Assembly: GCA_963711795.1 (NCBI GenBank)
Contig: CAVQFD010000005.1
Location: 713,695-777,694, forward strand
DNA: 64,000 bases
Origin: an uncultured Acidobacteriota bacterium
GTDB taxonomy: Bacteria; Acidobacteriota; Vicinamibacteria; Vicinamibacterales; CAVVIG01
Direction: 5' to 3'
This document shows, piece by piece, positions 38,479 to 60,945 of the stretch. The first letter of the stretch is position 1; the number at the start of each line of letters is the position of its first letter. Made by a program: the position numbers and the translations under genes. The notes beneath the pieces are model-generated. The model was given only the letters and a program-made list of their open reading frames with translations, made no database searches and was not told the origin of the DNA.

Positions 38479-40411
38479 GCGGTCTCCGTGAGCCGTGGTC
38501 GTTTCAGTTTGCGCACCTCTCCTACTCTGACAGTCAATCCCTCGCGGTCGAAGAACTCGAGCAGCGGGATCGCGTACTTACGGGACGTCTGGTACTGATC
38601 CCGGAATGCCGCCGCGGTCATGGTCTTCCCGCCGGACAGCGCCTCGACGAGACCTGTGCGCAGACGCTCGACGACTGCGGCCGCGAAATAGAGGTCGGGC
38701 GCAATGGCGACGACGGAATGCTCCGCCTCGAGCGCGCGCATCAGGCCGATGAGTTTTGGGCGCTGGACGCCAAGCTCCTCCGCGATCTGCTTGAGATCGG
38801 GCGGTGCCATCGGCGCTTTGTCGAGCAGCGCGCGGATGCGGTCGACCAGCGCCTGATCGCCGGTCGGCACCTGGACGCGATGGCCGGGCAGCCGCAGCAG
38901 CGGACCCTCGCGATTGAGCGCTCCCTCGGTTTCGAGCTCCTGCACGAGCAGCCGCACGATCTTCGGCGGCGTGTGCGGAGGGCAGCCCGCGCGTGCGTCC
39001 TCGACGTCCATTCCCGGCAGGAGCGGGTGAGAGGCATGCCAGGCGCGCACCCGATCGACAATCTCGGTCTTGGCTCGCCGGCAATCCTCCTCGGGCGCGT
39101 AGTGCAGATCGCTCTCGAGGCGGAACACGTGGATGTCGGCTCGCGCCTCCAAGCGCGCGCGCAGATCCTCCTGTCGCTCGTTGAGCACCAGCGACAGCTG
39201 CTGCAGCGGTACCGCCAGCTCGCCGCTGTTCCAGGCGAGGCTCTCGACGACCACTCCCTCGTTCCCCCGATCGAAACCCTCCAGCCGCGCCAGCAGTGAG
39301 GGGCCAGCCCTCTTGTGTTTCGGCGCCGCCGGCCAGACGACCGTGCCGCCCGCAATCGTCCGCTGCGCCGTTTCGTCGCGCAGGATGAAGCGATCGCCCC
39401 GCAGGGCAAGGAACGGCTCGGTGAGCTCGATCTGGCAGTACGCGCGCCCTCCAGGCTCGACTTTCGCAGCGGCCGGACCGAACACGATCACCTTTCCCAT
39501 GCGCTCCGACGTGCCGAGGTGAACGCGCACGCGCTGATGGCTCTTGATGCCGGCCGGCGCGCCAGGCGGCACTTCGATACGGGCGTCGAACCGGTCGCAT
39601 GTGAGCGTGATTGCCTCGTCGCAGATCGTGTCGCCGCGGGTGATCGGCGTCCGCGTGTCGCCCGCCAGGTTCAGCGCGAGCCGCTGTCCCCAGCGAGCCG
39701 ACGTCCGCGGGCTCGTTGTGCACCTCGACGCTGCGAACGCGCACGACATCGCCTCCCGGCAGACGACGCACGTGGTCGCCGGGCCGGACCTCACCGCGCG
39801 ATGGCGGTGCCGGTCACGATGAGGCCATGCCCCGGCGACGCGAAGGCCCGATCGACCGGCAGGCGGAAGCGGCCGTCCGGCTTCGGCTTTCCGCTCGAGG
39901 CGAACACGTCGGCGCAATCAGGTCGCGCAGCTCCGCCAGGCCTTCGCCGGTGACGAACGAGAAGGGCACGACGGCGATTCCTGCGAGCGTCGTGCCCGCG
40001 ATCAGTCCGCGGATCTCGTCGCTCACCTCGCGCACGCCGCTCTTCCGAGACCAGGTCGGTCTTGGTGATGACGAAGATCGCGCGCTCGACCCCCAGCAGG
40101 TGGAGGATGTCGAGATGCTCCACGGTCTGCGGCATCACGCCATCGTCGGCCGCGACGGTGAAAAGCACGAGGTCCATGCCGTGTGCGCCGGCCAGCATGG
40201 TGCGGATGAAGCGCTCGTGGCCCGGCACGTCCACGACCCCGGCCCGGATTCCGTCGGGCAGATCGAGGTGCGCGAACCCGAGCTCGATCGAAATGCCGCG
40301 CTCCTGTTCTTCCTTGAGCCGATCGGTGTTCTGGCCGGTGAGCGCCTTGACGAGGCTCGTTTTCCCGTGGTCGATGTGTCCGGCCGTTCCGACGATCCAG
40401 TGTGTGGTCAC
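38475..40411 (-). pseudogene. selB: Selenocysteine-specific elongation factor; several frame disruptions
   Basis: GTG 40411 gives [47 protein letters not shown]...[16 protein letters not shown]. Domains II-III lie in other frames. The C-terminal winged-helix region is intact (ORF 38475..39917, ...YAIPLLEFFDREGLTVRVG). Confidence 0.85.
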
Positions 40412-41804
40412 TCCGGTCTCCCACCGGGGGACGAGGTCGGCCGGGTCGTCGACCGTGCGCAGGTCGAGGAGGAAGCGCCCGTCGCTGATGCGTCCGATGA
40501 TCGGCGGGTGCGCGGCGCGGAAGCGTTCGGCGAGACGGTCGGCCGAGAGGCTGTCGCTCTCGATCGCAATGACCTTGGTCGGCAGTTCCTCGGTCGGTAA
40601 GGCGCCGCTGCCGATCTGCGACGTGGAATCCTCGAGCGACACACGGCAGCCGGCGCCGAGCGCCCGTTGCAGAGATGGCAGGACGTGCCGGCCCATCTCG
40701 GCGATCTCGTCCAGGCTTCTGGTGAAGGCCCTGAGCGTCGGGATGCTGCGGGCGACGTCCGCTGACTGCTGGTAAAGCTTCAGCGTGGCTTCCAGCGCCG
40801 CAAGGGTCAGCTTGCTGCAGCGCACGGCGCGGTGGAGCGGGTTGCCGGCAATCTGTCGCACGAGCGCGCGGGAGCCGACGATGAGCCCCGCTTGAGGGCC
40901 GCCGAGGACCTTGTCGCCGCTGAACGTCACGATGTCGGCGCCAAGCGACACACGCTCGGACACGAGCGGTTCCTTCGGCAGGCCATAGCGGCTGAGATCC
41001 ACGAGCGCGCCGCTCCCGAGGTCCTCCATGACGGGGACGCCGCGGCTTCGGCCAATCGCCACGAGATCGCCGAGCGCGACGTCGGCCGAGAAGCCCACGA
41101 TGCGGTAGTTGCTCGTGTGGACCTTGAGCAGGAGGCCGGTGTTCGGCCCGATGGCCTGCTCGTAGTCGCCCGGATGCGTGCGATTGGTCGTCCCCACTTC
41201 GCGCAGGACGGCGCCGCTCTTGGCGACGATGTCCGGGAATCCGGAATGCCCCGCCGATCTCGACGAGCTCGCCGCGCGAGACCACGACGTCTTTTCCGCT
41301 GGCCAGCGTGTTGATCGCGACCAGGACAGCGGCGGCGTTGTTGTTGACGACCGTGGCGGCCTCGGCGCCGGTCTGCTGGACCAGGAGCGATTCGACCAGC
41401 GCTTCGCGGCTGCCGCGGGCGCCGCGCGTCCAGGTCGTACTCCAGGTTGACCGGGTGACGCGCGGCGAGCGTCAGGGCGTCGATGGCCGGCTGGGGCAAC
41501 AGGGCGCGGCCGAAGTTGGTGTGGAGGATGGTGCCGGTCGCGTTGACGATGCGGACCAGGCCGCTCTGGCGGTCGTGCCGCATGCGCCGCTCGACCCTCG
41601 TGAGGATGTTGTGATCGTCGAGCTCGGCGTGCGGCACCGAGGCTCCCTCCGCGATCTGCCGCCGCAGGTCTGCCACGACGTCACGGCACAGGCCTGCGCA
41701 CGTACGTCGCGGCCGACGCTCGCCATCCAGGCCGTCGCGCGTGCGTGCGACAGCAGCCGATCGACGGACGGCAGGTCTCTGAGCGAGGCTTTCGCCTGCG
41801 TCAT
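40408..41804 (-). pseudogene. selA: L-seryl-tRNA(Sec) selenium transferase; several frame disruptions
   Basis: MTQAKASLRDLPSVDRLL...; IVNATGTILHTNFGRALL; [20 protein letters not shown]...; [18 protein letters not shown] (PLP-lysine region). These lie in different frames. The stop overlaps the selB GTG (GTGA). Confidence 0.85.
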
Positions 41805-41897
41805 GCTCGACGAGGCTGGCACAGTGGGCGCAGGATTTCAACCGAGGGCAGGCTGACGACTGGTTGCAGCGTTAGAGTATGAGGCGCTTCACGCTCA

Positions 41898-41934
41898 GGG
41901 CAGGCGGGGCAGGTGGGGCAGGTGGGGCGGGCAG
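41898..41934 (+). repeat. G-tract repeat GGGcaggcGGGGcaggtGGGGcaggtGGGGcGGGcagg; potential G-quadruplex
   Basis: Five G3-4 tracts with 1-5-nt loops lie between the selA start and tRNA-Sec. Confidence 0.6.
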
Positions 41935-41984: not shown

Positions 41985-42079
41985 GGAGAAGGAAGGTGCC
42001 CGGTGGTGCCGCTGGTCTTCAAAACCAGTCTGGGGGCCGTCAGGCCCTCGGAGGGTTCGACTCCCTCCCTTCTCCGCCA
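41985..42079 (+). tRNA. selC: tRNA-Sec (anticodon UCA at 42019-42021), 95 nt including CCA
   Basis: 8-bp acceptor GGAGAAGG/CCTTCTCC. Anticodon arm CTGGT-CTTCAAA-ACCAG. Long variable arm GGGGCC-gtca-GGCCC. T arm GAGGG-TTCGACT-CCCTC. Discriminator G followed by CCA. Confidence 0.9.
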
Positions 42080-43230
42080 CTAAGTGTTGGCAGAGCTGAG
42101 GTTCACGATCTGCACCAGTCCGCCGTTGCCACGATGTCTGCCACGAACGGCGGAGATTCCGGGGGACTCGAGCAAATCGAATCGCGCCATCGAGCGCTGG
42201 CAGGACTGAGGTGCATGTACCGCTGCGTCGTCGTGAAGTTGGCATGCCCGGCCAACTCCTGAATCGCCCGCGGCGCCGCGCCCCGCATCGCGAGATGCGA
42301 ACAGAACGTGTGCCGTAGACGATGCGGACCATTGCCCTGCAAGGCCTGCGCGTCGTGCCGCTCGGACGACCGCGCCCGCGACGGTGCCTTCGGTAAACGG
42401 CTTGCCGCTGTCGCGATACAGCACCCGTGGGCCCCGCAGATGTTGACGCTTCCGAAGGGCCGCGGTCAGACGAGCCGTCATCGGCACATACCGGAATCCG
42501 GCCGCCCTTCGGCGAATCACCTGGCCTTCCCAGGCGTTCCGCTGCACGCAGAGCGAGCGTTTGACCAGATCCAGGTCGGTCCACTCCAACGCCATAATCT
42601 CGCCCGACCGCAGGCCCGCCTCGCCACTCAGGAGCACGAGCAGATACGTACGACATCGATCGCGTTCGCGGCGGCATCGACGAACCGCTCGTACTCATCG
42701 AAGTCGTAGAAACGAGACCGCGCGACTTGGAGACCTTCAACAGCTTGATCGCTGCACGGCATCTGGTCGATCACGCCCCATTCCACCGCTTTCTTGAGCA
42801 GCGTGTTCAACACGGTGAGGACATTGTTCACGGTCTTCGGCGACTTGCCCTTGCAGATGGGCCTTCAGCCGCTGTACATCTTCGGTCGTGATGGCGTCGA
42901 GCCGCTTGCGCCAACATTGGCTGCAAATGCACGCGCAAGATCAAGTCCTTGGCGTGAATGCCGCTCGGCTTTGTGCTGGTTGGCCCGGGCGTGGCCGTCC
43001 AAAAACCGCGGCGAGAAGTCTTCTAAGGTTGGCACCTCCTTCTTGGGTGAGCGGGTCAGGCGTGGTGCAGCAGATGACCACTCCCGCTCCTGGCTCCCCC
43101 ATCGCTGGGCGGCTATTCGACCCGTGACCGGTCGCCTTCCGCTCCCGGATACGTCGTGCCGTCCGGCAGGACGACCCGAATATCCACATCCCAGCCACCC
43201 TCGTCGATACGGTCTGACTGTTACGCTCAT
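42080..43230 (-). pseudogene. Tyrosine-type site-specific integrase (phage/ICE type, arm-binding N-terminus); several frame disruptions; stop codon abuts the tRNA-Sec 3' end
   Basis: MSVTVRPYRRG...; KEVPTLEDFSPRFLDGHARANQHK; KTVNNVLTVLNTLLKKAVEWGVIDQMPC; LLSGEAGLRSGEIMALEWTDLD; [41 protein letters not shown]. The R..HxxR..Y catalytic elements are visible. Confidence 0.85.
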
Positions 43231-43271
43231 CGCTGTCTACCTTCCAGCGATGGCGTGGACTTCTGGCGAAG

Positions 43272-43523
43272 CTAGTTTAGCAGAGCGTCCTCGCGGACCA
43301 GCACGCGGCGTCCGATGCGGACGATGCCGGGGAGCTGGCCCCGCTCCACCATCGAGTAGATCGCCTTCCTGGTCGTCCGCAGGAGTTCGGCCACTTCGAC
43401 CGGCGTCAACAAGGCGGGAGCGGGGCTGAGTCTCTGTGCCGCCGTCTCACTTGAGCACGGTGGATGCGCCAGGGTCAGAGGCGCGTGTAGCTTTCCACGA
43501 CTCGGGCTGGCGGGCTTGTTCAT
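43272..43523 (-). CDS. Excisionase/AlpA-like helix-turn-helix protein
   Basis: LLTPVEVAELLRTTRKAIYSMVERGQLPGIVRIGRRVLVREDALL. The ATG shares one nt with the upstream stop (TGATG). Confidence 0.6.
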   Translation of the reverse strand: MNKPASPSRGKLHAPLTLAHPPCSSETAAQRLSPAPALLTPVEVAELLRTTRKAIYSMVERGQLPGIVRIGRRVLVREDALLN

Positions 43524-43855
43524 CAACTCGTCGATTCGGTCCTGGCTCGAATGGCGGACAGGCGCTCGTCCACCTTTTTCCATTTATCGCGGTCCGCCCG
43601 ATCGATCAGTGCGCGCATGGAATCCGCGGTCACGGCTGTTCCGTCTACGAGTGCGAAATGCAGATTCAGGAGGATGACTCGCAGGGCCAGGAACTCGGCG
43701 AGTAACGCGGTCACCATGGGATCGGGCTGCACCGCATGCAGCAGGGTTTTGCGCGCCCACTCGCTAATCGTCAGCGGGGCGGCGAGACTCGCGACGAGCT
43801 CGTACTCCGCGTCTGTGACTTTGGTGCTGAGCGACTTCGTGCGTCGTGTGGCCAT
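43523..43855 (-). CDS. Ribbon-helix-helix (CopG/MobC-like) DNA-binding protein
   Basis: MATRRTKSLSTKVTDAEYELVASLAAPLTISEWARKTLLHAV. It is the first gene of the RHH-Xis-Int operon. Confidence 0.55.
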   Translation of the reverse strand: MATRRTKSLSTKVTDAEYELVASLAAPLTISEWARKTLLHAVQPDPMVTALLAEFLALRVILLNLHFALVDGTAVTADSMRALIDRADRDKWKKVDERLSAIRARTESTS

Positions 43856-43922
43856 GGGGTTCTCCGCAGAGCGAAAACCGGGCCGAAGATCGGCCGCTTC
43901 TCTAACCCGCATCGATTCAACG

Positions 43923-44017
43923 AGTTCCCTGTTGGCAACCGATGTTCCTGGCGAGGAACCGCGCACCGCCAACCGGCGTGTCTTCAGAAGGTTCCGAATG
44001 AGGAACCGAGGTTCCTG
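43923..44017. promoter_or_regulatory. Cluster of GGTTCC/GGAACC inverted and direct repeats upstream of the RHH gene; candidate operator or recombinase arm sites
   Basis: gttccctg, GTTCCTggcgAGGAAC, GGTTCCgaatgaGGAACCgaGGTTCC. Confidence 0.35.
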
Positions 44018-44189
44018 GGCAGCACCCTGCTGGGGGTGACGTGTCACACCTACTCCCGCTGCGCAGCAGCGCTCTTCGCGGCACGCCGTCGCGCGGGTCA
44101 GAATCTGACTCTGCTCGGTCACCAGCCGAGGGTCAGATTTGACCCTTATGGCGGAGCGGTTTCGCAAGGGGAGTTGGCTGACGAGTGAA

Positions 44190-44508
44190 CTACTTACCGA
44201 TCCGGGAAAGCCAGTAGCCAGGTTCGCGGCTGTCGTGCGCAAACGCCAGAATTCGAAAGGCGCCTTCCCACGGTAAGTACACGACGTGGTACGGGAAGCG
44301 CTTCACCGGGACTTGGCGGACGGGCACGTCGTTGGGTAGGCCAGGAACTCGGCGCCCGATCTGCGGCCAACCGGCGATCTGTTCCAGCGCGAAGTCCACG
44401 GCCTGGACCAACTCCAAGCCAAGCCCGTGCGCTGGCCTTCTGTACGACAGTGCGGCGTCTTCAAGCTCGGCGGAGGCTTCTGGCTCGGGGCGGAACTGTA
44501 CCGGTCAT
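44190..44508 (-). CDS. ParE/RelE-family toxin; frameshift right after the ATG
   Basis: ...VQFRPEPEASAELEDAALSYRRPAHGLGLELVQAVDFALEQIAGWPQIG...FPYHVVYLPWEGAFRILAFAHDSREPGYW. The ATG overlaps the antitoxin stop (ATGA). Confidence 0.7.
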
Positions 44509-44750
44509 CGTTCGGTCAGCCGTCGGACAACGCGCGCGCGCACGTCTTCCCACGGTTCACCGGCCGATTCGCCGTTCATCACACGTCGCGCCCGTCGTTC
44601 GATTTCATGAGCCCAGGCGGCTTCGACCTCGGCGGCATTTTTCGCCGGCGCCTCGTCGAGGCTGGCCAACAACTCGGCGGCCACGTCGGCGCGTTCTTCA
44701 ACGGGCAACGTCAAGGCTTCTCGAAGAAGTTCTTGCGCTCGGGACGTCAT
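44505..44750 (-). CDS. Addiction-module antitoxin component
   Basis: MTSRAQELLREALTLPVEERADVAAELLASLDE...EVEAAWAHEIERR. Confidence 0.7.
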   Translation of the reverse strand: MTSRAQELLREALTLPVEERADVAAELLASLDEAPAKNAAEVEAAWAHEIERRARRVMNGESAGEPWEDVRARVVRRLTER

Positions 44751-44776
44751 GTCGCCATTCTAGACTCGGCCGGGCA

Positions 44777-44847
44777 GCCCAACAAGCGGCTGCACCAGAC
44801 GGCTGCGAGCTTTTTGTGCAGCCGCTGGTGAGCCGCGATCGTTAGGC
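44777..44847 (+). repeat. attC site 1 (R'' GCCCAAC ... R' GTTAGGC)
   Basis: gcccaacaagcggctgcacc...ggtgcagccgctggtgagccgcgatcGTTAGGC. L''/L' pair with unpaired bases. Confidence 0.75.
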
Positions 44848-45052
44848 CCTCGGCGGACGGAAGAGCAAGATGACTATCCAGTACGCGCTGTGGCCCGGCG
44901 ACAGTTTCTCTGAACTCTCGGACTTAATTCGTCGTTCGCGGGTGCCGCGTGCGGCTAATTGGGGCTGTGTTGTCGGTTGAATGCGAGCCTGCCCAAGCAA
45001 CGGAAGCGGCGGCTCTTGCCAACGAGTACGGTGAGGCGCTCCGGAAATACTT

Positions 45053-45526
45053 TTGGTTCGCTCGGCTCATGACTGTCGAGGAGGACCGGGGCAATGCCAG
45101 CACGAGCAGTCACCATCCAAGGCAAAACCGCGCCCGAAGGCATCGCGGGATTGTGTGCGACTGAGAGACGCCCGGCGCTCGATTGTCAAACGCGCACATG
45201 CGCGTTTGAGTCAGTGCTACGACTACTTCCAGCTGGCCCGCGATGAACCGAAGCATGCCTTGTTCAATATCTACAAGCTCATTGAGACGATCGAGGGTGA
45301 GTATGGTGGCGAGAAGGAGGCAGCTCGCGCCCTCGACGATGGTGGGCTCATTAAGCGGCTCAAGCGTCACGCGAACCAGGGGGATCATGACCAGCGCCAC
45401 GCCCCGCTTGACCCCGGAGCCGCCGTGCCGATTGACGACAACTCTTTGGCACTGTTGACTGAGGCGACGAACGACTTGCTTCGTAGGTACGAGGATGCGG
45501 TTGCATCAGCGGCGCCATCCTCTTAG
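45053..45526 (+). CDS. Hypothetical cassette ORF; start and frame uncertain
   Basis: ORF only. Readable part is ...RLSQCYDYFQLARDEPKHALFNIYKLIETIEGEYGGEKEAARAL.... Overlapping ORF 44949..45164 suggests a possible frameshift. Confidence 0.35.
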   Translation: MVRSAHDCRGGPGQCQHEQSPSKAKPRPKASRDCVRLRDARRSIVKRAHARLSQCYDYFQLARDEPKHALFNIYKLIETIEGEYGGEKEAARALDDGGLIKRLKRHANQGDHDQRHAPLDPGAAVPIDDNSLALLTEATNDLLRRYEDAVASAAPSS

Positions 45527-45549
45527 TCCTGCTGGCCAAATGCTTCGTG

Positions 45550-45621
45550 GCCTAACAGCGTTCCACCAGTCGGCCGCTGATGCGATCGTGAGCGGCCGCT
45601 CGTGAACGCTGGCCGTTAGAC
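45550..45621 (+). repeat. attC site 2 (GCCTAAC ... GTTAGAC)
   Basis: gcctaacagcgttccaccagtcggccgctgatgcgatcgtgagcggccgctcgtgaacgctggccgttagac. Confidence 0.8.
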
Positions 45622-45721
45622 CGCCAGTCAAGGAGAGGGTGCCGCTCTAGGAGAACTGGTAGGGTACGTCGTCGCGACCGAGTCCGCCTTCTCAATCATT
45701 CACTCATCCAAGGAGACACAC

Positions 45722-46245
45722 ATGCCCATCACCGCATTCAACAGTTTCAGCGACGGACTCGCTCCGAATCAAAGAAGCCGGGAGCATTTCATCGCCAACA
45801 TCGATCTGAAGACGGCCCGCACTGGGTGCCCTATGCCGACGGCGTCTGGATCCAACTCTGCCACTTCAATGTCACGTCCGGCGGATTCAGCGTTGTCCTG
45901 AAAGGTCTCCCGGGCGCCGCGCTGGGCACTCACTACCACATCGGGACCGTTCGGGGCTTTACGATGCGTGGTCAGTGGCGGTACCTGGAACATGACTGGG
46001 TTGCGAAGCCCGGCACGTTCATCTACGAACCCGCCGGCGAGGCCCACACGCTGGTCATCACGGACGACTCCCCGGAGCCGGCGCTGATCTTCTTCGCGGT
46101 CGAGGGCGGCCTCATCTACCTGGACAAGGCGGTCGACGGCGGTTTTGCCGCTTATGAGGACGGCTTTACCGCTTTGGAACTGGCCCGAAAGTACTATCGT
46201 GAGGCCGGTCTCGATGTGCGCAAGCTGGATGCGCTAGTTCGCTAA
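45722..46245 (+). CDS. Cupin-fold protein, 2,4'-dihydroxyacetophenone-dioxygenase-like; one frameshift ~45810
   Basis: An aaggag RBS precedes MPITAFNSFSDGLAPN...EHFIANIDLK. After the shift it reads DGPHWVPYADGVWIQLCHFNVTSGGFSVVLKGLPGAALGTHYHIG...YEPAGEAHTL. Confidence 0.65.
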
Positions 46246-46255
46246 TTGGGCTGCG

Positions 46256-46316
46256 GTCTAACAACCGGTTGCAGCGGACGGCGCTGTCGCGCCGCCGCTG
46301 AACCGGAGCGTTAGCC
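46256..46316 (+). repeat. attC site 3 (GTCTAAC ... GTTAGCC)
   Basis: gtctaacaaccggttgcagcggacggcgctgtcgcgccgccgctgaaccggagcgttagcc. Confidence 0.8.
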
Positions 46317-46347
46317 GGACGAACCAAGCAATTCAGGCTCAAGAACA

Positions 46348-46793
46348 TTGACTGACAATGAACTGGTTCTTGAACACTCCGTCGAGGCAGATGTGAGCGC
46401 GGCATTTGCCTGGGAGGACCGGACCGACATTACAACCTGGATCGATCCACCCGCGACGTTTCAGCTCAATGGGCCATTCGTTGAGGGAACCCAGGGGACA
46501 ACCCTCATGCCGGGACAAGACCGGCTCACGTGGTGGATTCGCGATGTTCACGCCGGATCGTCGTTCGCGATCGAAATGCCATTGGATCGAGCGACGCTCC
46601 GATTCGAATGGCACGTTGTCCCGGTCTCGGAGCAACGGACAAAGCTCACGCAACGGATCATTCTCTCAGGAAGCAACGCCACAGCGTATCGCGAACAGCT
46701 TCAAACGGGATTCGGGTCGACGCTTGCGGCCGGTATGGCAAGGATGTCAGCAGACATGGTGGCGGCGGAGAGAATCGGAAGACTCCCGGCTAA
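46348..46793 (+). CDS. SRPBCC (polyketide cyclase/START-like) protein; frameshift ~46765. The restored frame stops at the TAA inside attC R''
   Basis: MTDNELVLEHSVEADVSAAFAWEDRTDITTWIDPPATFQLNGPF...WWIRDVHAGSSFAIEMPLDRATLRFEWHV. Confidence 0.6.
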
Positions 46794-46866
46794 CTTTCGC
46801 CTGGAGCCGACGCGCCGTTCTTCTGTGCGATCATGCCTGGCGCGCGGCTCAGGCGCAGCGTTGGGC
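46788..46866 (+). repeat. attC site 4 (GGCTAAC ... GTTGGGC)
   Basis: ggctaactttcgcctggagccgacgcgcc...ggcgcgcggctcaggcgcagcgttgggc. Confidence 0.7.
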
Positions 46867-46879
46867 GGACAAGCGATGT

Positions 46880-47551
46880 TCAAGTCTGTACCGAGGCATC
46901 AACCACAGTCTTACGCGATTGAATCGCCCGCCATGAGACGGTCATCAGCCAGGCACAAAAGCTCAGCACCATCAGGCGGTTCAGCCATCCGTTCCACGAG
47001 CCGGGACCGAACACGCGGCCGCTCGACAGTACCGCGATGGTATGGACCAAGGTCACCGCGACGCTTATCCACATGAAGTGGGCTGTCCATCGAATCGACT
47101 GCATGGCGGCCCGCCATGTCTGGCGGCGTCCAAGACTTCGGCTGAGAAGCACACCGGCGATCGGCAAGCTAAGAATGAATATCGCTCCGGCCGCACTATG
47201 AAGCATCCCGTGCGTCGTCATGTCTTCCGGCTTTGTCGTGATGGGATCCACGACAAAGATGCCGCCCACAGCCAGAGCCGCGGCGACAACAAGAAGCAGG
47301 CTGAGCGCGATCCTGCCGCCGGTGGTTTCGATCTCGGAGCGAAGGGCCGCAAATAACGCGGCGCAGCTGAGGGCCATGGAAAACATTGCCATCCTCATGA
47401 CCCAGCCGTAGTCTCCGATGGCGTATTCACTGCCCATACGCCATGAGGGATCCAGTTCCGGTTTGAGGACGTGCAAGATAGCGAGCAAAACAAGGAACGC
47501 GGCGGCAGCGGCAAATGACACGCGAGCTGCAGGTATTGAACTTGCCGTCAT
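46880..47551 (-). CDS. DUF998-like polytopic membrane protein (reverse-oriented cassette)
   Basis: Six predicted TM helices. Sequence includes MTASSIPAARVSFAAAAAFLVLLAILHVLKPELDPSWRMGSEYAIGDYGWVMR. Confidence 0.6.
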   Translation of the reverse strand: MTASSIPAARVSFAAAAAFLVLLAILHVLKPELDPSWRMGSEYAIGDYGWVMRMAMFSMALSCAALFAALRSEIETTGGRIALSLLLVVAAALAVGGIFVVDPITTKPEDMTTHGMLHSAAGAIFILSLPIAGVLLSRSLGRRQTWRAAMQSIRWTAHFMWISVAVTLVHTIAVLSSGRVFGPGSWNGWLNRLMVLSFCAWLMTVSWRAIQSRKTVVDASVQT

Positions 47552-47623
47552 CGATACAACCTCATTCTTCTTTTCGATTCGATGTCATTATCCGTTGTTT
47601 TTCAGCTCAAATAGTTAGCGGTT

Positions 47624-48603
47624 TGGAGTTCCCAGGATTCAGTGGACAGTCGTTTTAGCATCCGCAGCGGAGGCCGATGCCGATGTCCACGAAGCCAGCG
47701 CCGGGCGAGTCCGGTCGACGTACGAATTCATCAAGGCCCATCGAGACCAGTACAGCGTGCAGACGATGTGTCGCGTCCTCGGCGTCGCTCCGAGCGGCTA
47801 CTACGAGTGGCTTCAGCAGCCGATCTCGAACCGCGCGCAAGAGGATGCCCGGCTGCTTCGCCTGATTCGGGCGTCGTTCGTCGCGAGCCACGGCATCTAC
47901 GGCGCGCCGCGCGTCTTCCTCGATCTGCGTGAAGCGGGAGAGACCTGCAGCAAGCATCGCGTCGCGCGGCTGATGCGCGAAGCCAATCTGCGGGCGCTGC
48001 ATGGCTATCGCACGCGGCGCTGGGCCGTCGGGAAGCCGTCGGTCCTGATTCCGAATCTGCTGCAGCGACAATTCACCGTCGACGCGGCCCAACAAGGCCT
48101 GGGTGACCGATATCACCTACATTCGGACCTGGCAGGGCTGGCTCTACCTGGCCGTCGTCATGGATCTGTTCTCGCGCAAGATCGTGGGCTGGGCCGCCGG
48201 CCCGACCATTCACCGCGAGCTCGTGCTCGATGCCGTGCTGATGGCGGTGCGGCGACGACGGCCGCGCGGCACGCTGATTCACTCCGATCAGGGCACCCAG
48301 TACGGCAGCGACGCGTGGCGGCGATTCTGCCGTTCGAATCACCTCGAGCCGAGCATGAGCCGGAAGGGCAACTGCTGGGACAACGCCGTCGCCGAGTCCT
48401 TCTTCAGCAGCTTGAAGAAAGAGCGGATCAAGAAACAGATCTACAAGAACCGGGAGCTGGCGATCGCCGACGTGGCCGACTACATCGATACGTTCTACAA
48501 TCGGACGCGCCGCCACAGTCATCTCGGCGGGCTGAGTCCCGAGCAATTCGAAGCGGCTCACAACCGGCGCCGAAAACGTCTCCACTGAATCCTGGGAACT
48601 CCA
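47624..48603 (+). mobile_element. IS3-family element remnant (980 bp) with 23-bp terminal inverted repeats and no intact orfA
   Basis: IRL TGGAGTTCCCAGGATTCAGTGGA starts at 47624. Its reverse complement ends at 48603. No clear target-site duplication (gtt versus ggc). Confidence 0.8.
47757..48588 (+). pseudogene. IS3-family transposase OrfB (HTH_21 + rve/DDE integrase core); frameshift ~48085
   Basis: MCRVLGVAPSGYYEWLQQPISNRAQEDARLL...HGYRTRRW (ORF 47757) joins VTDITYIRTWQGWLYLAVVMDLFSRKIVGW...IHSDQGTQYGS...DNAVAESFFSSLKKE (ORF 48103..48588). Confidence 0.85.
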
Positions 48604-48646
48604 GGCTCGGCGGTTGCAAGATGAGATGGCGGGCGTGTGATGAGCG

Positions 48647-48718
48647 GTCTAACATGCGTTGCACCAGACGACCGCTGATGCGATCGTGAGCGGCCGCCGG
48701 TGAACGCGGACGTTGAAC
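48647..48718 (+). repeat. attC site 5 (GTCTAAC ... GTTGAAC)
   Basis: gtctaacatgcgttgcaccagacgaccgctgatgcgatcgtgagcggccgccggtgaacgcggacgttgaac. Confidence 0.8.
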
Positions 48719-48929
48719 CGCCGTAGCCCTCAGCGGACCTCCAAAAGACGGACGAACGTTGCCACGATATTGCCACGACGGAGGGCGATTCCAGCGGAGT
48801 CTCGGGGACACCAGTGAACGATTGCACGGTCTAAACTTGATGACTCGGCAGGGCTTGTTGCCAGAAGTCCCACGCCATCGTCATGTTAAAGAATCACGTG
48901 AATAGGGTTCACTCTCCCTTCTCCGCCAC
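48713..48929 (+). repeat. Non-coding cassette segment X, copy 1: ~190-nt conserved block ending in a degenerate copy of the tRNA-Sec 3' end (48905-48929)
   Basis: Near-identical to 52522-52731. It ends gggttcactctcccttctccgccac, against the tRNA sequence gggttcgactccctcccttctccgccac. Confidence 0.8.
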
Positions 48930-48950
48930 GCCCATTCGGGCGTGGCGTTC

Positions 48951-49389
48951 GAAGGGAGCGTCTAGGCTTCGGCCAATGGGCTTCGCCCATCGGCCTCGGC
49001 ACGACTCCCACTGAAGGGAGCGTCCAGGCTTCGTGCGACGGGTTTCACCCATCGCCCTCGGCACGACTCCCGCGGTAGTGCGCGACGTCGGTTCGGGCGT
49101 GGCGTTCGAAGGGAGCGTCTAGGCTTCGGCCAACGGGCTCTGCCCGTTGCCCTCGGCACGACTCCCTCTGAAGGAAGTGTCTGAGGTTCAGGCGATGGGC
49201 TTCGCCCATCGGCCTCGGCACGATCCCCTTGAAGGAGCGGTCTAGGCTTCGGCACGACTCCCGGTTCGAGGGAGCGACTAGGCTTCGGCCATTGAGCTTC
49301 GCTCGTCGGCCTCGGCACGACTCCCTCTAAAGGAAGCGTCTAGGCTGGTTACGATGGCTTCACCAATCGCCCTTGGCATGACTCTCTCT
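48951..49389 (+). repeat. Tandem array of ~7 units (~61-63 nt), each with a GGGAG...CTCCC frame around an internal hairpin
   Basis: Unit is gaagggagcgtctaggcttcGGCCAATGGGCttcGCCCATCGGCCtcggcacgactcccact. Units start at 48951, 49013, 49107, 49170, 49231, 49268 and 49329. Confidence 0.8.
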
Positions 49390-49462
49390 GACTAGCACAC
49401 GTTGCACCTGGCGGCGGCTGTTGCGAGACTGAACCGCCGCTCGTGAACGATAGCCGCTAGGC
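49390..49462 (+). repeat. attC site 6, degenerate cores (ACTAGCA ... GCTAGGC)
   Basis: L''/L' cgttgcacctggcggcgg ... ccgccgctcgtgaacg resemble those of attC 2 and 5. Confidence 0.55.
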
Positions 49463-49641
49463 AGCTACGACCGAATTGGAGAATCGCTCCGCCGATTTGA
49501 ATTGTTCCGTCGCCCAGCTCTGCAGTACAGTCGGCCAACTTACCACACGGCCGCAGACGACGGATATCGTGCGCCGGTGCTGATGCGGCTCCGTTCGGCC
49601 GACTCGCACTTCGCCAATGTGTGAACTGGAAGAGAGTTGCT

Positions 49642-50120
49642 ATGAAATGGCTGCTGCTCACCATCGGACTAGCTTCCTTAGCCGCTGGTCTGTCTTCGCA
49701 GGGCAAGCGGGTTATCGTCGTCCAGCCTTTCACTCTTGCGTCCGGTGTGGAATTGCCGTACGACACCAAGCTGCTTCAAACACAACTTGTCGCTGATCTC
49801 AAAGTTCAGATCGGCAAGGAGTTCGACTTCGTCGTGGAACCTCCCGCAGCTCCTCAGGGGTCGCTTTATAAGCTGGATGGGGAGATCACGGGCTGGCGTC
49901 CAGGCAATGCTGCCAAACGCCTCGTTATCGGCCTAGGCTCTGGTCGAGAAGCGACGGACATCCATTATTTTGTTACCGACACGTCTGGCCAAAAGGCCAT
50001 CGACCGGACGGACACAATACGTACAACTTCTACTCTCAAGGTGCTGGGTCTGTCGGGACGCTGGTGCATCCGATCGCTCAAAAGATCGCTGAGCGCCTTA
50101 AGGACGCTAGGTTGAAATAG
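49642..50120 (+). CDS. DUF4410-like lipoprotein; frameshift ~50025
   Basis: MKWLLLTIGLASLAAGLSSQGKRVIVVQPFT...LDGEITGWRPGNAAKRLVIGLGSGREATDIHYFV. The restored end is RTNFYSQGAGSVGTLVHPIAQKIAERLKDARLK. Confidence 0.55.
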
Positions 50121-50208
50121 GCCGCCGAACATGGATTGCAGCTGAACGGCGGTCCCAGGACCTGATGACGCGTCGCCGGAAGAAGAGATGATTTCGCGCC
50201 AAGGGCCG

Positions 50209-50317
50209 GTCTAACCGGCCGCTGCACCTGACGGCATCGGGCCGCGCTCACGCGCGCCCCTCGCGCTCGGTGCTATGGTGACTCGCGCGTGCCGCAGCTA
50301 AGCGGCAGGCGTTAGGC
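50209..50317 (+). repeat. attC site 7, long form (GTCTAAC ... GTTAGGC)
   Basis: gtctaaccggccgctgcacc...gtgccgcagctaagcggcaggcgttaggc. Confidence 0.65.
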
Positions 50318-50340
50318 TGACCTTAAGGCCGGGAAAGACG

Positions 50341-50820
50341 ATGCTCATGGATGTGGAGATCCTCGCAGATCAGATCAGCAGGGCCTTCCGGGGCGAGTCC
50401 TGGCATGGGCCCTCGGTGCTCGAGGTGCTGGCGGGTGTCTCGGCGGAAGACGCCGCCGCCCACCCAATTGCCGGAGCTCACAGCATTTGGGAGATCGTCC
50501 TTCACCTGGGTGCTGGATACACTTTGGTCCTTCGGCGCGTTCGTGGAGAGCGTGCAGCGCTCTCGCCGGAAGAAGAGTGGCCTCCAGTGCCGGCGTCCAG
50601 TTCGGAGGCGTGGCGCGAAAGCCAGCGAGCCTTGGAGGAACTCAACGAGCAGCTGCAGGGCGTTGTGCGCGCCTTCCCGGCGGAGCGCCTTCTCCAGGAG
50701 CTGGGCTCCGAGTACTCGGCGTACACCCAGTTCGCCGGCACGCCGCAGCACGACCTATATCATGCGGGTCAGGTCGTTCTACTCAAGAAGGCACTCGCTG
50801 CCTCGCGAAGGGCAGCCTAA
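50341..50820 (+). CDS. DinB-family (DinB_2-like) protein
   Basis: MLMDVEILADQISRAFRGESWHGPSVLEVL...AHSIWEIVLHL...HDLYHAGQVVLLKK. The stop TAA lies inside attC R'' GCCTAAC. Confidence 0.75.
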   Translation: MLMDVEILADQISRAFRGESWHGPSVLEVLAGVSAEDAAAHPIAGAHSIWEIVLHLGAGYTLVLRRVRGERAALSPEEEWPPVPASSSEAWRESQRALEELNEQLQGVVRAFPAERLLQELGSEYSAYTQFAGTPQHDLYHAGQVVLLKKALAASRRAA

Positions 50821-50890
50821 CAACGAGACGAAGCTGACAAGCTGCGATGACGTTGGCTCCCGCACCTTGCAGCTTATCTCGGTGTTATCC
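50815..50890 (+). repeat. attC site 8 (GCCTAAC ... GTTATCC)
   Basis: gcctaacaacgagacgaagctgacaagctgc...gcaccttgcagcttatctcggtgttatcc. Confidence 0.65.
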
Positions 50891-50940
50891 GGACACGGAA
50901 CAAACGCGAATCCAATTCGCGGATCGTTATTGACCTGGCA

Positions 50941-51390
50941 ATGTTTGAACACGTTACTGAGAAGAAGCGCAGTCGATGGCGGACCTTCTGGCCAGAGGTT
51001 GCGGACATCGGTGGAGCCGACGAAGCCATCCGTCTGGGCTACTGGACATGCTCCTTGGTAGCCGGCTTGACTGCTGTGGTGGCACTATTCGGGCAGACAT
51101 GGTCGGGATTGGTCGACGCCCTCGTCTTCGCGCTGCTCGGTCTTGGGTTGAAGCGAAGGTGGCGAAGCGCCGCCGTTGCGGCCTTTCTCCTTTTTGCACT
51201 CAACGTCGTCATCAGCCTCAGTCGCTCGCCGCTTGTCGGGGTGCTCACGGTCATCTTCTTTGTCTGTCTGCTGAGCGGAGTCCGCGGCACGTTTGCGCAC
51301 CGGCGTCTCATCGCCCAAGGCATACAGCCCGGGTCTGGCGTGCCGGTGAATCTAGAAGCTGCGAAACAGGATGGGGACGGTGCCGGATAA
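50941..51390 (+). CDS. Hypothetical membrane protein (3 TM helices)
   Basis: LGYWTCSLVAGLTAVVALFG...LVFALLGLGL...AAFLLFALNVVISL...VLTVIFFVCLLSG. The stop TAA lies inside attC R'' GGATAAC. Confidence 0.5.
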   Translation: MFEHVTEKKRSRWRTFWPEVADIGGADEAIRLGYWTCSLVAGLTAVVALFGQTWSGLVDALVFALLGLGLKRRWRSAAVAAFLLFALNVVISLSRSPLVGVLTVIFFVCLLSGVRGTFAHRRLIAQGIQPGSGVPVNLEAAKQDGDGAG

Positions 51391-51478
51391 CAGCGGCTGG
51401 ACCCGACGGCGGCCCTCGTCGCGAACGAGCTGACTCGCGGGTGATCAGCCACCGCGGGTCAGCCGCCTGCCGTTAGGT
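51385..51478 (+). repeat. attC site 9 (GGATAAC ... GTTAGGT)
   Basis: ggataacagcggctggacccgacggcgg...ccaccgcgggtcagccgcctgccgttaggt. Confidence 0.65.
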
Positions 51479-51497
51479 GCTGCCCATCCCTCTCAAT

Positions 51498-52013
51498 ATG
51501 CGACTCCTCCTCGCACTCAGAGCTCTCTTCTTCGTCCTGCTGCTACCCGGTACACTGGCCGGCTACATCCCATTCAGCATCCTCCGAGCCGACAACCTAC
51601 TGCGCGTCCCAGCCCTCGGGCTCTCCTCCGTCTGCGCCGCCGTCTTCGCCATCACCGGTGCTCTTGTCCTCCTCCGGTGCGTCTGGGACTTCTTCGACGC
51701 AGGCAAGGGCACTCTCGCCCCTATCGATCCCCCACGCTTCCTTGTTGTCCGAGGTCTGTACCGCTTCACCCGCAACCCTATGTACAACGGCGTCATCGCC
51801 CTCATCCTCGGGGAGGCGTGGCTTTTCCAGAGCATCGGTCTGGCAAAGTACGCACTTCTAGTCCTCATCCTCTTCCACTTGTTCGTGGTCCTCTACGAGG
51901 AGCCTGCCCTTGAGTCACAGTTCGGGGAGTCGTATCGGGCCTACCGGCGTGCGGTTCCCCGCTGGGGCTTCACGACTCGGCCGTTTCAAGAGAGCACCGG
52001 GAGCACCGCCTAA
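51498..52013 (+). CDS. Isoprenylcysteine carboxyl / phospholipid methyltransferase-family membrane protein
   Basis: MRLLLALRALFFVLLLPG...LVVRGLYRFTRNPMYNGVIALILGEA...EEPALESQFGESYRAYRRAVPRW. The stop TAA lies inside attC R''. Confidence 0.75.
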   Translation: MRLLLALRALFFVLLLPGTLAGYIPFSILRADNLLRVPALGLSSVCAAVFAITGALVLLRCVWDFFDAGKGTLAPIDPPRFLVVRGLYRFTRNPMYNGVIALILGEAWLFQSIGLAKYALLVLILFHLFVVLYEEPALESQFGESYRAYRRAVPRWGFTTRPFQESTGSTA

Positions 52014-52102
52014 CATGCCGTTGCAGCTGACTGTCACGAGCCCTGCCGGCGCGAGCACGCGCAGCAGGGCTCGCGCCAGCAGCTGGACGCCGGTCGTTAG
52101 GC
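52008..52102 (+). repeat. attC site 10 (GCCTAAC ... GTTAGGC)
   Basis: gcctaacatgccgttgcagctg...cagcagctggacgccggtcgttaggc. Confidence 0.75.
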
Positions 52103-52457
52103 GGACAAGGCCAGGAAAGAGGGGGGAGTGTGCCCAATTCGATATCTCCAGAAGAACTCCGAGACCTGCACCTGCCTCAGCTTGGTCGGCGACTTAATTT
52201 CAAACGTGCGGGCTCGATTCGACCTTCAGGCGCCTGGGGCGCCTGCGAAGCGCAGGTCGATGACGTCACCACATGTGTTCATGTGTTCTCTATGCCGAAA
52301 TAGTAGAAGGACACGTGAAGAAGTTCGGCACAACTGGCTCGTTGCGGGACAGACAGTCACTGATGCCAAGACGTAGAGGGTGAGCTCAACGATCACGACA
52401 AGACAATTGAGTACCGGTTGGGCAACGAGGCGGAATTGATTGCGGACATGCATGACT

Positions 52458-52527
52458 GCCTAACATGGCATGCAGCCGACAGCGCGCGTGACTACGAGTG
52501 CGCTGCGGCTGAAGCCTGACGTTGAAC
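52458..52527 (+). repeat. attC site 11 (GCCTAAC ... GTTGAAC)
   Basis: gcctaacatggcatgcagccgacagcgcgcgtgactacgagtgcgctgcggctgaagcctgacgttgaac. Confidence 0.75.
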
Positions 52528-52731
52528 CGCTGTAGCCCTCAGCGGACCTCCAAAAGACGGACGAACGCTGCCACGATACTGCCACGACGGAGGGGAGTCT
52601 CGGGGACACCAGTGAACGATTGCACGGTCTGAACTTGCTGACTCGGCAGGGCTTGTTGCCCGAAGTCCCATGCCATCGTCATGTTAAAGAATCACGTGAA
52701 TAGGGTTCGACTCCCTCCCTTCTCCGCCACT
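52522..52731 (+). repeat. Non-coding cassette segment X, copy 2, ending in an exact 29-nt copy of the tRNA-Sec 3' end (52703-52731)
   Basis: gggttcgactccctcccttctccgccact is identical to 42053-42081. Confidence 0.85.
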
Positions 52732-52761
52732 TTCCTCGCTTGTGGCTCGGTCAGTAGCGGA

Positions 52762-52870
52762 GAAAGGGAGCGTCTAGGCTTCGGTCAACCGGCTTTGCCC
52801 GTTGCCCTCGGCACGACTCCCACTGAAGGGAGATCTAGGCTTTGGGCAATGAGCTCCGCTCATCGCCGAT
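52762..52870 (+). repeat. Two further units of the ~62-nt hairpin tandem repeat
   Basis: gaaagggagcgtctaggcttcggtcaaccggctttgcccgttgccctcggcacgactcccact and gaagggagatctaggctttgggcaatgagctccgctcatcgcc. Confidence 0.75.
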
Positions 52871-52944
52871 CCTACACAGGTCGTAACCCGTGTCGTCGCG
52901 TGGCTCCGTCAGCGGTAATCTCGGTCGACAACATCAGATGGGTC

Positions 52945-53017
52945 GGCTAACCTCCGCTTGCAGCCGTCGGCGGCTGGTGCGATCGTGAGCCGCCGCGGCT
53001 GAAGCGGCGCGTTGGGC
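52945..53017 (+). repeat. attC site 12 (GGCTAAC ... GTTGGGC); last one seen
   Basis: ggctaacctccgcttgcagccgtcggcggctggtgcgatcgtgagccgccgcggctgaagcggcgcgttgggc. Confidence 0.8.
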
Positions 53018-53134
53018 TGCGGACGTGTGTTCTTGGATGGAGAGCGAGGCACTATGCAGGTCATTCGACGGTTCGCCGGTGCTGTTTGCGTTCGACAACA
53101 TCGTGGCCGAGTTGGTGCAAAAGGCGGGTGCCGC

Positions 53135-56345: not shown

Positions 56346-56831
56346 ATGCATAACCACGCGTCCCGCCGCCGGTTCGTGAAAGCCGTTGTGGGTGCGGCTG
56401 CCGTCGCTGGAGGCCGGAGCGCCTCGGCACAGCAGCCTGGACAAATTCGGGGCTTCGACCATGTCGCGGTGCCGATGCAGAACACCGAGGCCATGCTCAC
56501 GTTCTATCGCGCGCTCGGCTTGCAGATGAACGAAACCGCTGGCGCCGTCTCGGTGTATGTCGGCGCCGATCAGATGATCAACTTCCACCGGCCGGCACGC
56601 TGGCCGGATCCAGCTTTCACGTTGCGCGCCCCGGCCGCCCGACCCCCGTGTGGTGACTTCTGCTTCGTGTGGGACGGGAACGCCGAGTCGCTGAAGGCGA
56701 CCTTGGACAGGGTTGGGGCGAAGGTAGAAGTGGGCCCGGCTCAACGGGCCGGGGGCCGGCGCAGGAACGGCACGAGCACCTACGTGCGTGACCCGGACGG
56801 GAATCTGCTCGAGTTCATCATCTACTCATGA
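56346..56831 (+). CDS. VOC family protein with a Tat-like signal
   Basis: MHNHASRRRFVKAVVGAAAVAGG...FDHVAVPMQNTEAMLTFYRALGL...TYVRDPDGNLLEFI. Confidence 0.75.
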   Translation: MHNHASRRRFVKAVVGAAAVAGGRSASAQQPGQIRGFDHVAVPMQNTEAMLTFYRALGLQMNETAGAVSVYVGADQMINFHRPARWPDPAFTLRAPAARPPCGDFCFVWDGNAESLKATLDRVGAKVEVGPAQRAGGRRRNGTSTYVRDPDGNLLEFIIYS

Positions 56832-57626
56832 GCACCGTCCGCATCGCGCTCGCGAACCTCCGTGTGCCCTCGACGCCAGACGAGTCCGTCTCCCTGGCGA
56901 CATCAGCGGTCGCCGACGCCGGCCGGCAGTCCGCGACCGTGATTTGTTTCCCGGAATGCTTCGTTCCCGGGTATCGCTGGCCCGGCGAGACGGCGCCAGC
57001 ACCCGATCCTGCCTTCCTCGAACGGGCATGGGCTGAAGTCGCGCGCGCCGCCGGAGCGGCCCGCATCACCGTGATCCTTGGCACGGAGCGGATCACCAGC
57101 CGCGGCTTGCAGATCACCGCATGTGTGATCAACCCGGACGGCACGGTCGCGGGATGGCAGGACAAAGCGCAGCTCGACCCGTCGGAGGAGGCCACGTATC
57201 CGGCGTTCGGGACCGAACGCCAGGTATTCACGGCGGGCCCGCTGACCTTCGGCGTGGTGATTTGCCACGAAGGGTTCCGCTATCCGGAGACCGTGCGGTG
57301 GGCGGTCCGGCGCGGCGCGCAGGTCGTGTTCCACCCGCACGCGGATGTCGCCGCAGCCCGGCAGCTATCGCCCGCTCACGTTCGCGGATCCGGCCAACAC
57401 GTTCCACGAGAAGGCGATGCTGTGTCGCGCGGCGGAGAACACGTGCTACTTCGCGTCCGTGAACTGCGCAAGCGAAGGCTCCGGCACGACGTCGGCAATC
57501 GTGCGTCCGGACGGTACGCTGCAGGCCTTTCAGCCTTACGGACAGGAGGGCCTCCTCGTGGCGGACCTGGACCTCAGCACGGCGACCGGACTGCTCGCTT
57601 CGCGGTGCCGGACGTGGCCGATGTAA
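56828..57626 (+). CDS. Carbon-nitrogen hydrolase (nitrilase superfamily); frameshift ~57345
   Basis: VICFPECFVPGY (Glu), AQLDPSEE, FGVVICHEGFRYPE (catalytic Cys). After the shift it reads ...NTFHEKAMLCRAAENTCYFASVN. ATGA overlap with the previous gene. Confidence 0.8.
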
Positions 57627-57661
57627 ACAGTCTGAGACGCGAGAGACACCGAGGTGCGGTC

Positions 57662-60919: not shown

Positions 60920-60945
60920 ACCTTGAACCTTGAACCTTGAACTGA
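60898..60945. repeat. GAACCTTGAAC word repeat, one arm only
   Basis: Sequence is gaaccctgaaccttgaaccctgaaccttgaaccttgaaccttgaac. Confidence 0.6.

Follow-up and report, generated by a model that had tools for sequence, protein, structure and literature searches.

Two near-identical blocks ending in tRNA-Sec copies within an acidobacterial attC array are probable attR junctions of a small integrative element

A stretch of 64,000 nucleotides from an uncultured Acidobacteriota bacterium (contig CAVQFD010000005.1, positions 713,695–777,694; this whole stretch is referred to as the window, with position 1 at its first letter) carries an array of integron-type attC sites in which one non-coding block of ~200 nt, ending in a copy of the 3' end of tRNA-Sec, occurs twice. 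The locus raises the question of what this block is and why it is present in two copies. Our analysis indicates that the blocks are, with high probability, attR junctions of a small integrative element that uses the 3' end of tRNA-Sec, and that the two copies most likely arose from two insertions of closely related elements. Judged by its predicted parts, each block is a P arm joined to a core, that is, half of attP, and is neither cassette cargo nor a small RNA. An attR junction had been named in the original prediction as one alternative, and it is the one favored by the evidence.

Copy A (48713–48929) and copy B (52522–52731), found where they had been predicted, were 96% identical over the tract from TTGAAC up to the start of the tRNA-like part (175/182 aligned bases, with one 11-nt gap, in copy B) and were paired by blastn within the window with an E of 1.6e-76. 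No third copy was detected in the window by blastn or by the right-end profile search described below, and the 3.6 kb separating the two copies is unique sequence. Mechanically called open reading frames (ORFs) reach the block edges at 48428–48811 (minus strand) and 52681–52950 (plus strand), none being common to both copies. The high identity has its left edge at the TT of the attC core GTTGAAC and its right edge at the end of the tRNA-Sec 3'-end copy. With an attC covariance model built from ten candidates of the window, the sites directly upstream, 48645–48720 and 52456–52529, scored 78.5 and 54.9 bits, respectively, and both end in the GTTGAAC that opens the block. Because these upstream sequences are real attC-type sites, the left edge is the crossover point between G and TT, and the predicted start of the homology at the TTGAAC of an attC core is thus supported. 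The bodies of the two upstream attC sites were identical at 35/56 comparable bases, and the 4 nt preceding TT at 4/4. The block had also been predicted to run through hairpins to the next attC; hairpins and then an attC do follow both copies, but the high identity stops at the core. A BLAST search of the block against plasmid and phage collections gave no match, and exact-pattern scans of genome contigs gave 0 matches, whether the pattern was a 26-mer of the block or GTTAAAGAA followed by the core.

The integration target is the tRNA-Sec gene (selC; 41985–42079, plus strand), which is the sole tRNA of the window and was identified by ARAGORN and by Rfam RF01852 (74.2 bits); its final ~27 nt, from 42052 on, constitute the core that it has in common with the two blocks. 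Its last 28 nt and the 2 next bases (42052–42081) are repeated at 52702–52731 (30/30 exact; blastn E of 1.8e-11), so that the core of copy B (52704–52731, plus strand) reproduces the tRNA-Sec 3' end without a mismatch. The core of copy A (48906–48929, plus strand; GGGTTCACTCTCCCTTCTCCGCCA) is the same sequence minus three bases, a degraded 24-nt copy of the T-arm, acceptor and CCA. A tRNA-Sec 3'-end copy in the block, as originally claimed, was therefore confirmed: copy B holds it unaltered, copy A in degraded form. The CT that follows CCA in both copy B and attL was considered as a sign of element origin and dropped, because a match of two bases carries no significance and the position is variable among other right junctions.

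The sequences that follow the two cores differ from each other. The flank of copy A (48930–49387, plus strand) consists of a trailer hairpin and about six 62-nt hairpin (H) units arranged in three ~157-nt super-units, and the flank of copy B (52732–52880, plus strand) consists of a different ~35-nt trailer, folding back on the acceptor strand, and 2 H units; the next attC sites after the hairpins are 49388–49464 and 52943–53019, respectively. The CCA of copy A is followed by CGCCCATTCGGGCGTGGCGTTCGAAGGGAGCG and then by the 62-nt units, and in the related locus L001 TGCCCATGCGGGCATGGCATTCGAAGGGAGCG and a single 62-nt unit come after an intact tRNA-Sec. The flank of copy A is thus collinear with the sequence after an intact tRNA-Sec, indicating that copy A is joined to the native downstream flank of tRNA-Sec, as an attR should be. 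The trailer of copy A pairs with the 3' strand of the acceptor in a strong hairpin (48906–48960; z = -8.75), and between the window and L001 (6040–6130) this hairpin shows a compensatory change (GCCACGCCC/GGGCGTGGC versus GCCATGCCC/GGGCATGGC), so that the hairpin after tRNA-Sec may be a conserved structure of the precursor trailer. The copy B trailer, which differs from that of copy A over ~35 nt, gave a z of -3.9 for the pairing with the acceptor strand. The H units (48951–49387 and 52763–52880) end in CGACTCCC, which equals eight bases of the tRNA-Sec T-arm.

The remainder of each block has the makeup of an attachment arm. The P arm of copy A (48713–48905, plus strand) has the octamer TGCCACGA in tandem at 48760 and 48771, GATTCC, and, adjoining the core, the series CCAGAAGTC, GCCATC and GTTAAAGAA. 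That of copy B (52522–52703, plus strand) has the octamers at 52569 and 52580 and lacks the 11 nt GCGATTCCAGC, which all aligned relatives keep. The putative P' arm module of attL (42121–42176, plus strand), which overlaps the C-terminal codons of the integrase gene, has the same octamer in tandem at 42127 and 42139, then GATTCC. A GATTCC-containing stretch follows each octamer pair, and in copy B it was lost through the 11-nt deletion. The P' repeats lie 48 and 60 nt beyond the tRNA-Sec end, and the P-arm repeats lie 146 and 135 nt ahead of the core in copy A and 135 and 124 nt ahead of it in copy B. The octamer occurs nine times in the 64 kb against 3.4 expected, a number reached in 0/100 shuffles, and 6/9 occurrences make up the three tandem pairs of the P' arm and the two P arms. 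This layout of three tandem pairs is the one expected for predicted arm-type integrase sites on both sides of an attachment site.

The P' module is also present in the related loci L001, L003, L030 and L033. Moreover, the arm repeat differs between elements and matches between P and P' of one element, at conserved distances: it is TTGCCAC in the window, L030 and L033, and TCTCCA in L002, where CTCTCCAAAAC occurs twice in the P arm and the matching GTCTCCAC twice in the P' arm. Right-end arms of a tmRNA type (L012 and L014) carry the repeat GTCTCCAAAAT, as does the P' arm of the tmRNA-adjacent integrase of L029. We built an nhmmer profile of the right end (P arm) from the arms of L030, L002, L020, L012, L014 and L011 only, the arms of the window being left out. 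The profile matched the window at 48755–48923 (E 6.6e-29) and 52566–52737 (E 1.7e-23), and also at the P' module (42121–42176; E 9e-4) and the tRNA core, with no match in the window beyond these. The matches at the two blocks mark the block as an attR junction, composed of the element's P arm and the core.

At the other boundary, directly 3' of tRNA-Sec and all on the minus strand, lie three genes. The one next to tRNA-Sec encodes a tyrosine integrase (42103–43230) of a family that targets tRNA-Sec, tRNA-Ser and tmRNA and is distinct from the integron integrase IntI: with the integron-integrase model TIGR02249 (cutoff 265 bits), the tRNA-adjacent integrase, scored on the intact relative P0001, reached 41 bits. 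It is followed by an excisionase-type HTH_17 gene (43242–43583; TIGR01764, PF12728, and tblastn with the xis of L003) and by a small accessory gene (43553–43882) that is conserved in this int-xis module; it had no family match and is labelled RHH-like from its sequence only. The integrase has ~60 extra residues N-terminal to its SAM-like and catalytic domains, and this region had no match to the Pfam arm-binding families. The stitched integrase of the window had 3960 homologues, the best being 72–75% identical; two more distant homologues (63–64% identical) carry source names of Acidobacteria/Vicinamibacterales. Over 42058–44145 the window and L001 share 87% identity; the homology gives out at the start of the IntI gene of L001.

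The integrase is readable only across about nine frame changes, and ~20 single-base insertions relative to the int-xis region of L001, mostly outside homopolymer runs, were counted over 42080–44150. On the opposite side of tRNA-Sec from the element lie selD, selB and selA, of which selB and selA (38475–41841, minus strand) need at least three frame changes each, and selD (~37384–38478) is intact, its in-frame TGA near 38380–38382 falling within GxAAK, a motif characteristic of selenocysteine sites. The frameshifts over 38475–41841 mean either that the selenocysteine machinery is decaying or that the assembly is locally wrong; elsewhere in the window, ORFs of up to 1119 codons are intact. The system as assembled, with a frameshifted integrase, a damaged copy A core and an 11-nt deletion in the copy B arm, likewise points to either decay or poor assembly. 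The G+C content was 0.60–0.63 over 42–54 kb, compared with 0.67–0.69 in the core genome upstream of 42 kb.

Between this module and the blocks, and beyond the first block, extends the cassette array. The covariance model gave 12 attC sites, all on the plus strand, over 44775–53019, with starts at 44775, 45548, 46254, 46786, 48645, 49388, 50207, 50813 (weak), 51383, 52006, 52456 and 52943. A tblastn search with two IntI proteins found no IntI in the window, so the array is of the CALIN type, CALINs being clusters of attC sites without an integrase (Cury et al 2016; bioRxiv 10.1101/030866); the adjoining IntI of a complete integron is lacking. Pfam analysis of the cassette ORFs showed a reversed toxin–antitoxin pair with attC in the first cassette (44190–44750) and matches to Cupin_7, DUF998, DUF4410, DinB_2, PEMT and others. 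The cassette directly upstream of the copy A attC holds an insertion sequence of 980 bp (47624–48603, plus strand) that encodes an rve transposase and is bounded by perfect terminal inverted repeats of 23 bp. In the attC at 49388–49464, which the last hairpin unit abuts, GCT replaces the conserved GTT in R' and AGC replaces AAC in R''; the change is compensated, and pairing is thus kept, with the loss of a triplet considered essential for recombination.

The comparison with related elements supports the same boundaries. Five distinct relatives with 70–75% identical integrases (L001, L002, L003, L026/L030 and L033) all have the integrase within ~100 nt of a tRNA-Sec 3' end. Two of them carry, beside int-xis, a second recombinase that passes TIGR02249 as a true IntI, namely, L001 (integrase 72% identical; 446 bits), where tRNA-Sec lies beside selA-selB-selD and the contig ends inside the array, and L003 (L003–L005; 71%; 378 bits), where IntI is located between the small accessory gene and the toxin–antitoxin genes, and the antitoxin gene and attC are homologous to those of the first cassette of the window. 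Given that the homology to L001 ends at IntI and that L003 has this layout, the element of the window looks like the same design minus IntI. L030 (70%; also L026) is a complete element of 10.5 kb with about nine attC sites and no IntI, in which the arm (GTTGCCACGATGTTGCCACGACGAAGGGCGATTCC..., 11062–11279) closes the array directly ahead of chromosomal genes, only a degenerate attC-like 5' half lying ahead of the arm. L002 (75%; selA-selB-selD nearby) had no attC matches and has a second tRNA-end copy 9.5 kb off, preceded by a homologous arm (right end 1576–1800; 75% identity with the final 80 nt of the block). In L033 (~70%; in the same 90% cluster as P0013), the right end (4451–4634) has an attC ending ~40 nt before the arm, a perfect tRNA-Sec-end core and four attC sites beyond it; since arm and core are inside the array, the window is not unique in having an array-embedded junction. 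More distant integrases lie at a tmRNA gene (L029; 65%) and at tRNA-Ser(GGA) (L031 and L032; 64–65%), with other cargo.

Several further observations were made on these relatives. The IntI genes of L001 (2894–3856) and L003 (1929–3221) are oppositely oriented relative to the cassettes, and that of L003 has a ~100-residue N-terminal extension, indicating that different integron platforms were joined to one int-xis backbone. L033 has a 649-residue serine recombinase (Resolvase/Recombinase; 6738–8687) between int-xis and the cassettes, about where L001 and L003 carry IntI. A group II intron domain (RF02003, 94 bits) adjoins the right-end P arm of L002 at 1777–1917. In L027 (11010–11360) and L028, an integrase relative lies behind arm-like repeats and a T-loop/acceptor-like core, with no tRNA by ARAGORN, an arrangement that resembles attP (P-core-P') inside a 65-kb contig.

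Taken together, the locus has the features of an attR junction at its far end: a repeat of the target 3' end at the far boundary, int and xis at the other boundary beside the intact target, an arm homologous to the far ends of relatives (L002, L030 and L033) and predicted arm repeats in both P and P'. The element would consist, in order, of the tRNA-Sec core (attL), the P' arm, int, xis, the small gene, the cassette array lacking IntI and its last attC, and then, ~40 nt past this attC, of the P arm, the core (attR) and the native tRNA trailer. The N-terminal region of the integrase may bind the tandem TGCCACGA repeats in both arms, and the core-binding and catalytic domains would exchange strands in the T-loop/acceptor sequence common to attP and the tRNA, the putative position of the crossover. 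Insertion would rebuild the tRNA and displace the original 3' end with its trailer to the far side, beside the P arm. The edges of the identity are accounted for as well: it starts between G and TT because cassette exchange between attC sites replaces everything leftward and leaves TTGAAC and the P arm constant, and it ends at the core because the core is the crossover region of the island integrase. Copy A would close the present element (42080–48929), and copy B with the cassettes at 49465–52521 would be the remnant of an earlier element whose integrase end was lost, if this order of events is right.

An integron-based origin of the second copy has to be weighed against this. The unit of TTGAAC, arm, core, hairpins and attC could be an integron cassette, with an attR junction bracketed by attC sites being excised by IntI and re-inserted, and the attachment half-site could possibly be carried between arrays in this way. 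attC sites do bracket both copies, the identity begins at the crossover between G and TT, H units follow both cores, the arm and core of L033 are also array-embedded with 4 attC beyond, and relatives carry functional-looking IntI genes; the units 48713–49457 and 52522–53013 even have the formal shape of cassettes, with TTRRRY after G and a terminal attC of their own. However, the unit does not recur as a whole including its 3' attC, since trailers, hairpin numbers (6 versus 2) and 3' attC sites differ: the identity drops once the core is passed, the ~35 nt beyond it being different, with the copy A version matching the native trailer of L001, and the similarity of the two 3' attC sites does not exceed that of any other pair of attC sites in the array. 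The arm of L030 closes its array and is followed by chromosomal genes without attC, and right ends homologous to the arm occur in elements that have no detectable attC. Furthermore, the window has no IntI, and copy B occupies the most distal position in the array, though new cassettes normally enter at attI. We therefore consider the cassette origin unlikely. For the same reasons, the free-standing attP-like cassette of the original prediction was not supported, in that the high identity ends at the core instead of the next attC, the 3' attC sites differ, and relatives, some of them without an integron (L002 and ~18 tmRNA-type fragments), have this arm as their fixed right end. Because the 96% identity does not run through the trailer to a common 3' attC, as cassette copying predicts, two insertions are favored, and serial insertions followed by decay are the most likely origin of the two copies, cassette duplication being less likely.

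Ordinary segmental duplication by homologous recombination or slippage, with the attC and core edges being coincidental or a product of later gene conversion between two old copies, appears highly improbable. Unequal crossing-over can yield direct repeats 3.8 kb apart, and hairpin arrays, with their variable unit number and super-units, are prone to recombination. Nevertheless, only ~210 nt are doubled, the intervening 3.6 kb being unique, both ends of the tract fall on crossover points of two different site-specific recombinases, and independent single-copy elements (L030 and L033) have the same boundaries. A tandem duplication of a larger gene-containing segment is excluded by the unique 3.6 kb, and a generic repeat by the presence of two copies in 64 kb and by the fact that all homologues are island ends.

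Least probable of all, we consider, is that the block encodes a small RNA with a tRNA-like 3' tail, as had also been proposed, or with a tmRNA-like one. The block does end in a T-arm/acceptor/CCA sequence, and the 60 nt ahead of the core resemble fragments with a tmRNA-type 3' end. In a metagenome scan with the pattern of GTTAAAGAA joined to the T-loop, 20 loci were found, most of which (~18) end in GGGTTCGACTCCCGCCGCCTCCACCA, a tmRNA-type 3' end. Among these 20 look-alikes, however, only L008 is supported as a tmRNA gene: ARAGORN called one in 1/20 loci, and on 10 of the 20 a tmRNA match at the Rfam gathering score was found in L008 only. The other loci have the whole ~170-nt arm in common with the block, including tandem repeats, GATTC and the series CCAGAAGTC, GCCATC and GTTAAAGAA, which identifies these fragments as right ends of relatives targeting tmRNA, in keeping with L029. 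The 3' ends of the homologues match the RNA genes targeted by the integrase family, of tRNA-Sec or tmRNA type. The block itself had no Rfam match even at E <= 10, folds no better than shuffled sequence (z = +0.17) and contains no 5' acceptor strand. A tmRNA derivation of the core-proximal 60 nt, implying a switch of the target from ssrA, was considered and rejected, as only 1/20 loci was called as a tmRNA gene and the whole arm is common to the fragments; the shared GTTAAAGAA was likewise discarded as evidence for a tmRNA origin, the motif having been set by the search pattern itself.

Some observations weigh against attR junctions from two insertions. No excision product, empty site or close strain was found, the exact-pattern scans of genome contigs having returned nothing, and integration is accordingly read from architecture. 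Between and beyond the copies, tblastn found no remnant of int, xis or IntI. The older unit starts with hairpin repeats instead of a P' arm, so that an extra deletion must be assumed, and the canonical attC beyond copy B (52943–53019) has to be explained by a remnant of even greater age or by cassettes moving across the junction. With ~89% similarity between the H units behind the two cores, copying of the block may have included part of the flank. The native status of the copy A flank depends on a single relative, L001, and the frameshifts may be assembly errors instead of decay. In L001 (6017–6096), an H unit and, behind it, another core of 22 nt lie between the intact tRNA-Sec and the element, whose P' arm comes next, indicating that secondary target sites inside the hairpin array were used; a pseudo-site in a hairpin repeat may have served for integration or recombination, and several histories of the locus are therefore possible.

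In other parts of the window, intergenic arrays of heptamers (GTTCAAG, GTTCTGG and similar) followed by an inverted array (CCTTGAAC and similar) were observed at 14288–14380, 24655–24731, 25243–25432 and 60897–60942, forming long imperfect palindromes. Short tandem runs of GGGCAGGYG occur at 3192–3225, 41898–41932 and 62175–62212, one of them directly upstream of tRNA-Sec. A nitrilase/CN-hydrolase-like gene at 56828–57626 is apparently split by a frameshift, the ORFs 56828–57835 and 57345–57626 holding successive parts. Exact look-ups of two proteins of the window found neither recorded.

The anatomy of the block is that of textbook site-specific recombination, and integrons in islands and CALINs are known kinds of arrangement. 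In attachment sites of the lambda type (attP = P-core-P'), the arm sites are bound by the N-terminal domain of the integrase, and Xis is a further component. The present system resembles them in the core common with the target, the tandem short repeats at fixed distances in both arms, the ~60 extra N-terminal residues of the integrase and the excisionase gene directly upstream of int; it differs in that it targets a tRNA gene at the 3' end, the coding sequence of the integrase includes the P' repeats, the arm sites are predicted from sequence and the N-terminal region falls outside the Pfam arm-binding families. Islands at selC are familiar from enterobacteria, such as LEE, SHI-2 and PAI-I of E. 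coli 536, and have in common with the present element the insertion at the tRNA-Sec 3' end, a directly repeated tRNA end at the distal junction, the integrase beside the tRNA and the lower G+C content; the use of tRNA-Ser or tmRNA by relatives of the window integrase likewise recalls islands that target tRNA and tmRNA genes. Here, however, the host lineage is another one, the backbone is very small (int, xis and one small gene), and the cargo is an integron cassette array instead of virulence genes. SGI1 with its class 1 integron is an integron embedded in an integrative element, and the window similarly holds a cassette array inside a site-specifically integrating island, its lack of IntI being shared with CALINs; here, the integron fills the whole cargo space, with the last attC ~40 nt from the P arm, and attC sites continue past attR (in the window and in L033). 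Islands can also accrete in tandem at one tRNA gene, and here, too, the tRNA 3' end recurs as several direct copies, each behind an element arm, although the inner unit of the window, without an integrase end and starting with hairpin repeats, is at best a remnant. A literature search found no paper on a small tRNA-Sec int-xis module with an integron as its entire cargo and the last attC ~40 nt from the P arm, which is no proof of novelty.

The finding first affects annotation, with the boundaries of the present element at 42080–48929 and an older layer reaching to 52731, and the P-arm profile can be used to delimit related islands elsewhere. Less familiar than the block itself is the occurrence of an integron or an integrase-less attC array as the cargo of a very small tRNA-Sec module in at least five independent contigs. 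The idea of the original prediction that the mobility of the integron and that of the island are coupled was correct. A wider proposal, which we regard as doubtful at present, is that a minimal int-xis family carries a whole integron (IntI, attI and cassettes, the last attC abutting the P arm) as its only cargo into tRNA-Sec, thereby moving chromosomal integrons and seeding CALINs. If this were true, an attR bracketed by attC sites could be excised by IntI as a cassette, and a half-site recognized by the integrase could enter other arrays; repeated insertion and decay at one tRNA would be a route to clusters of attC sites without an integrase; and "sedentary" chromosomal integrons would be horizontally mobile, with this module as their vehicle between soil bacteria.

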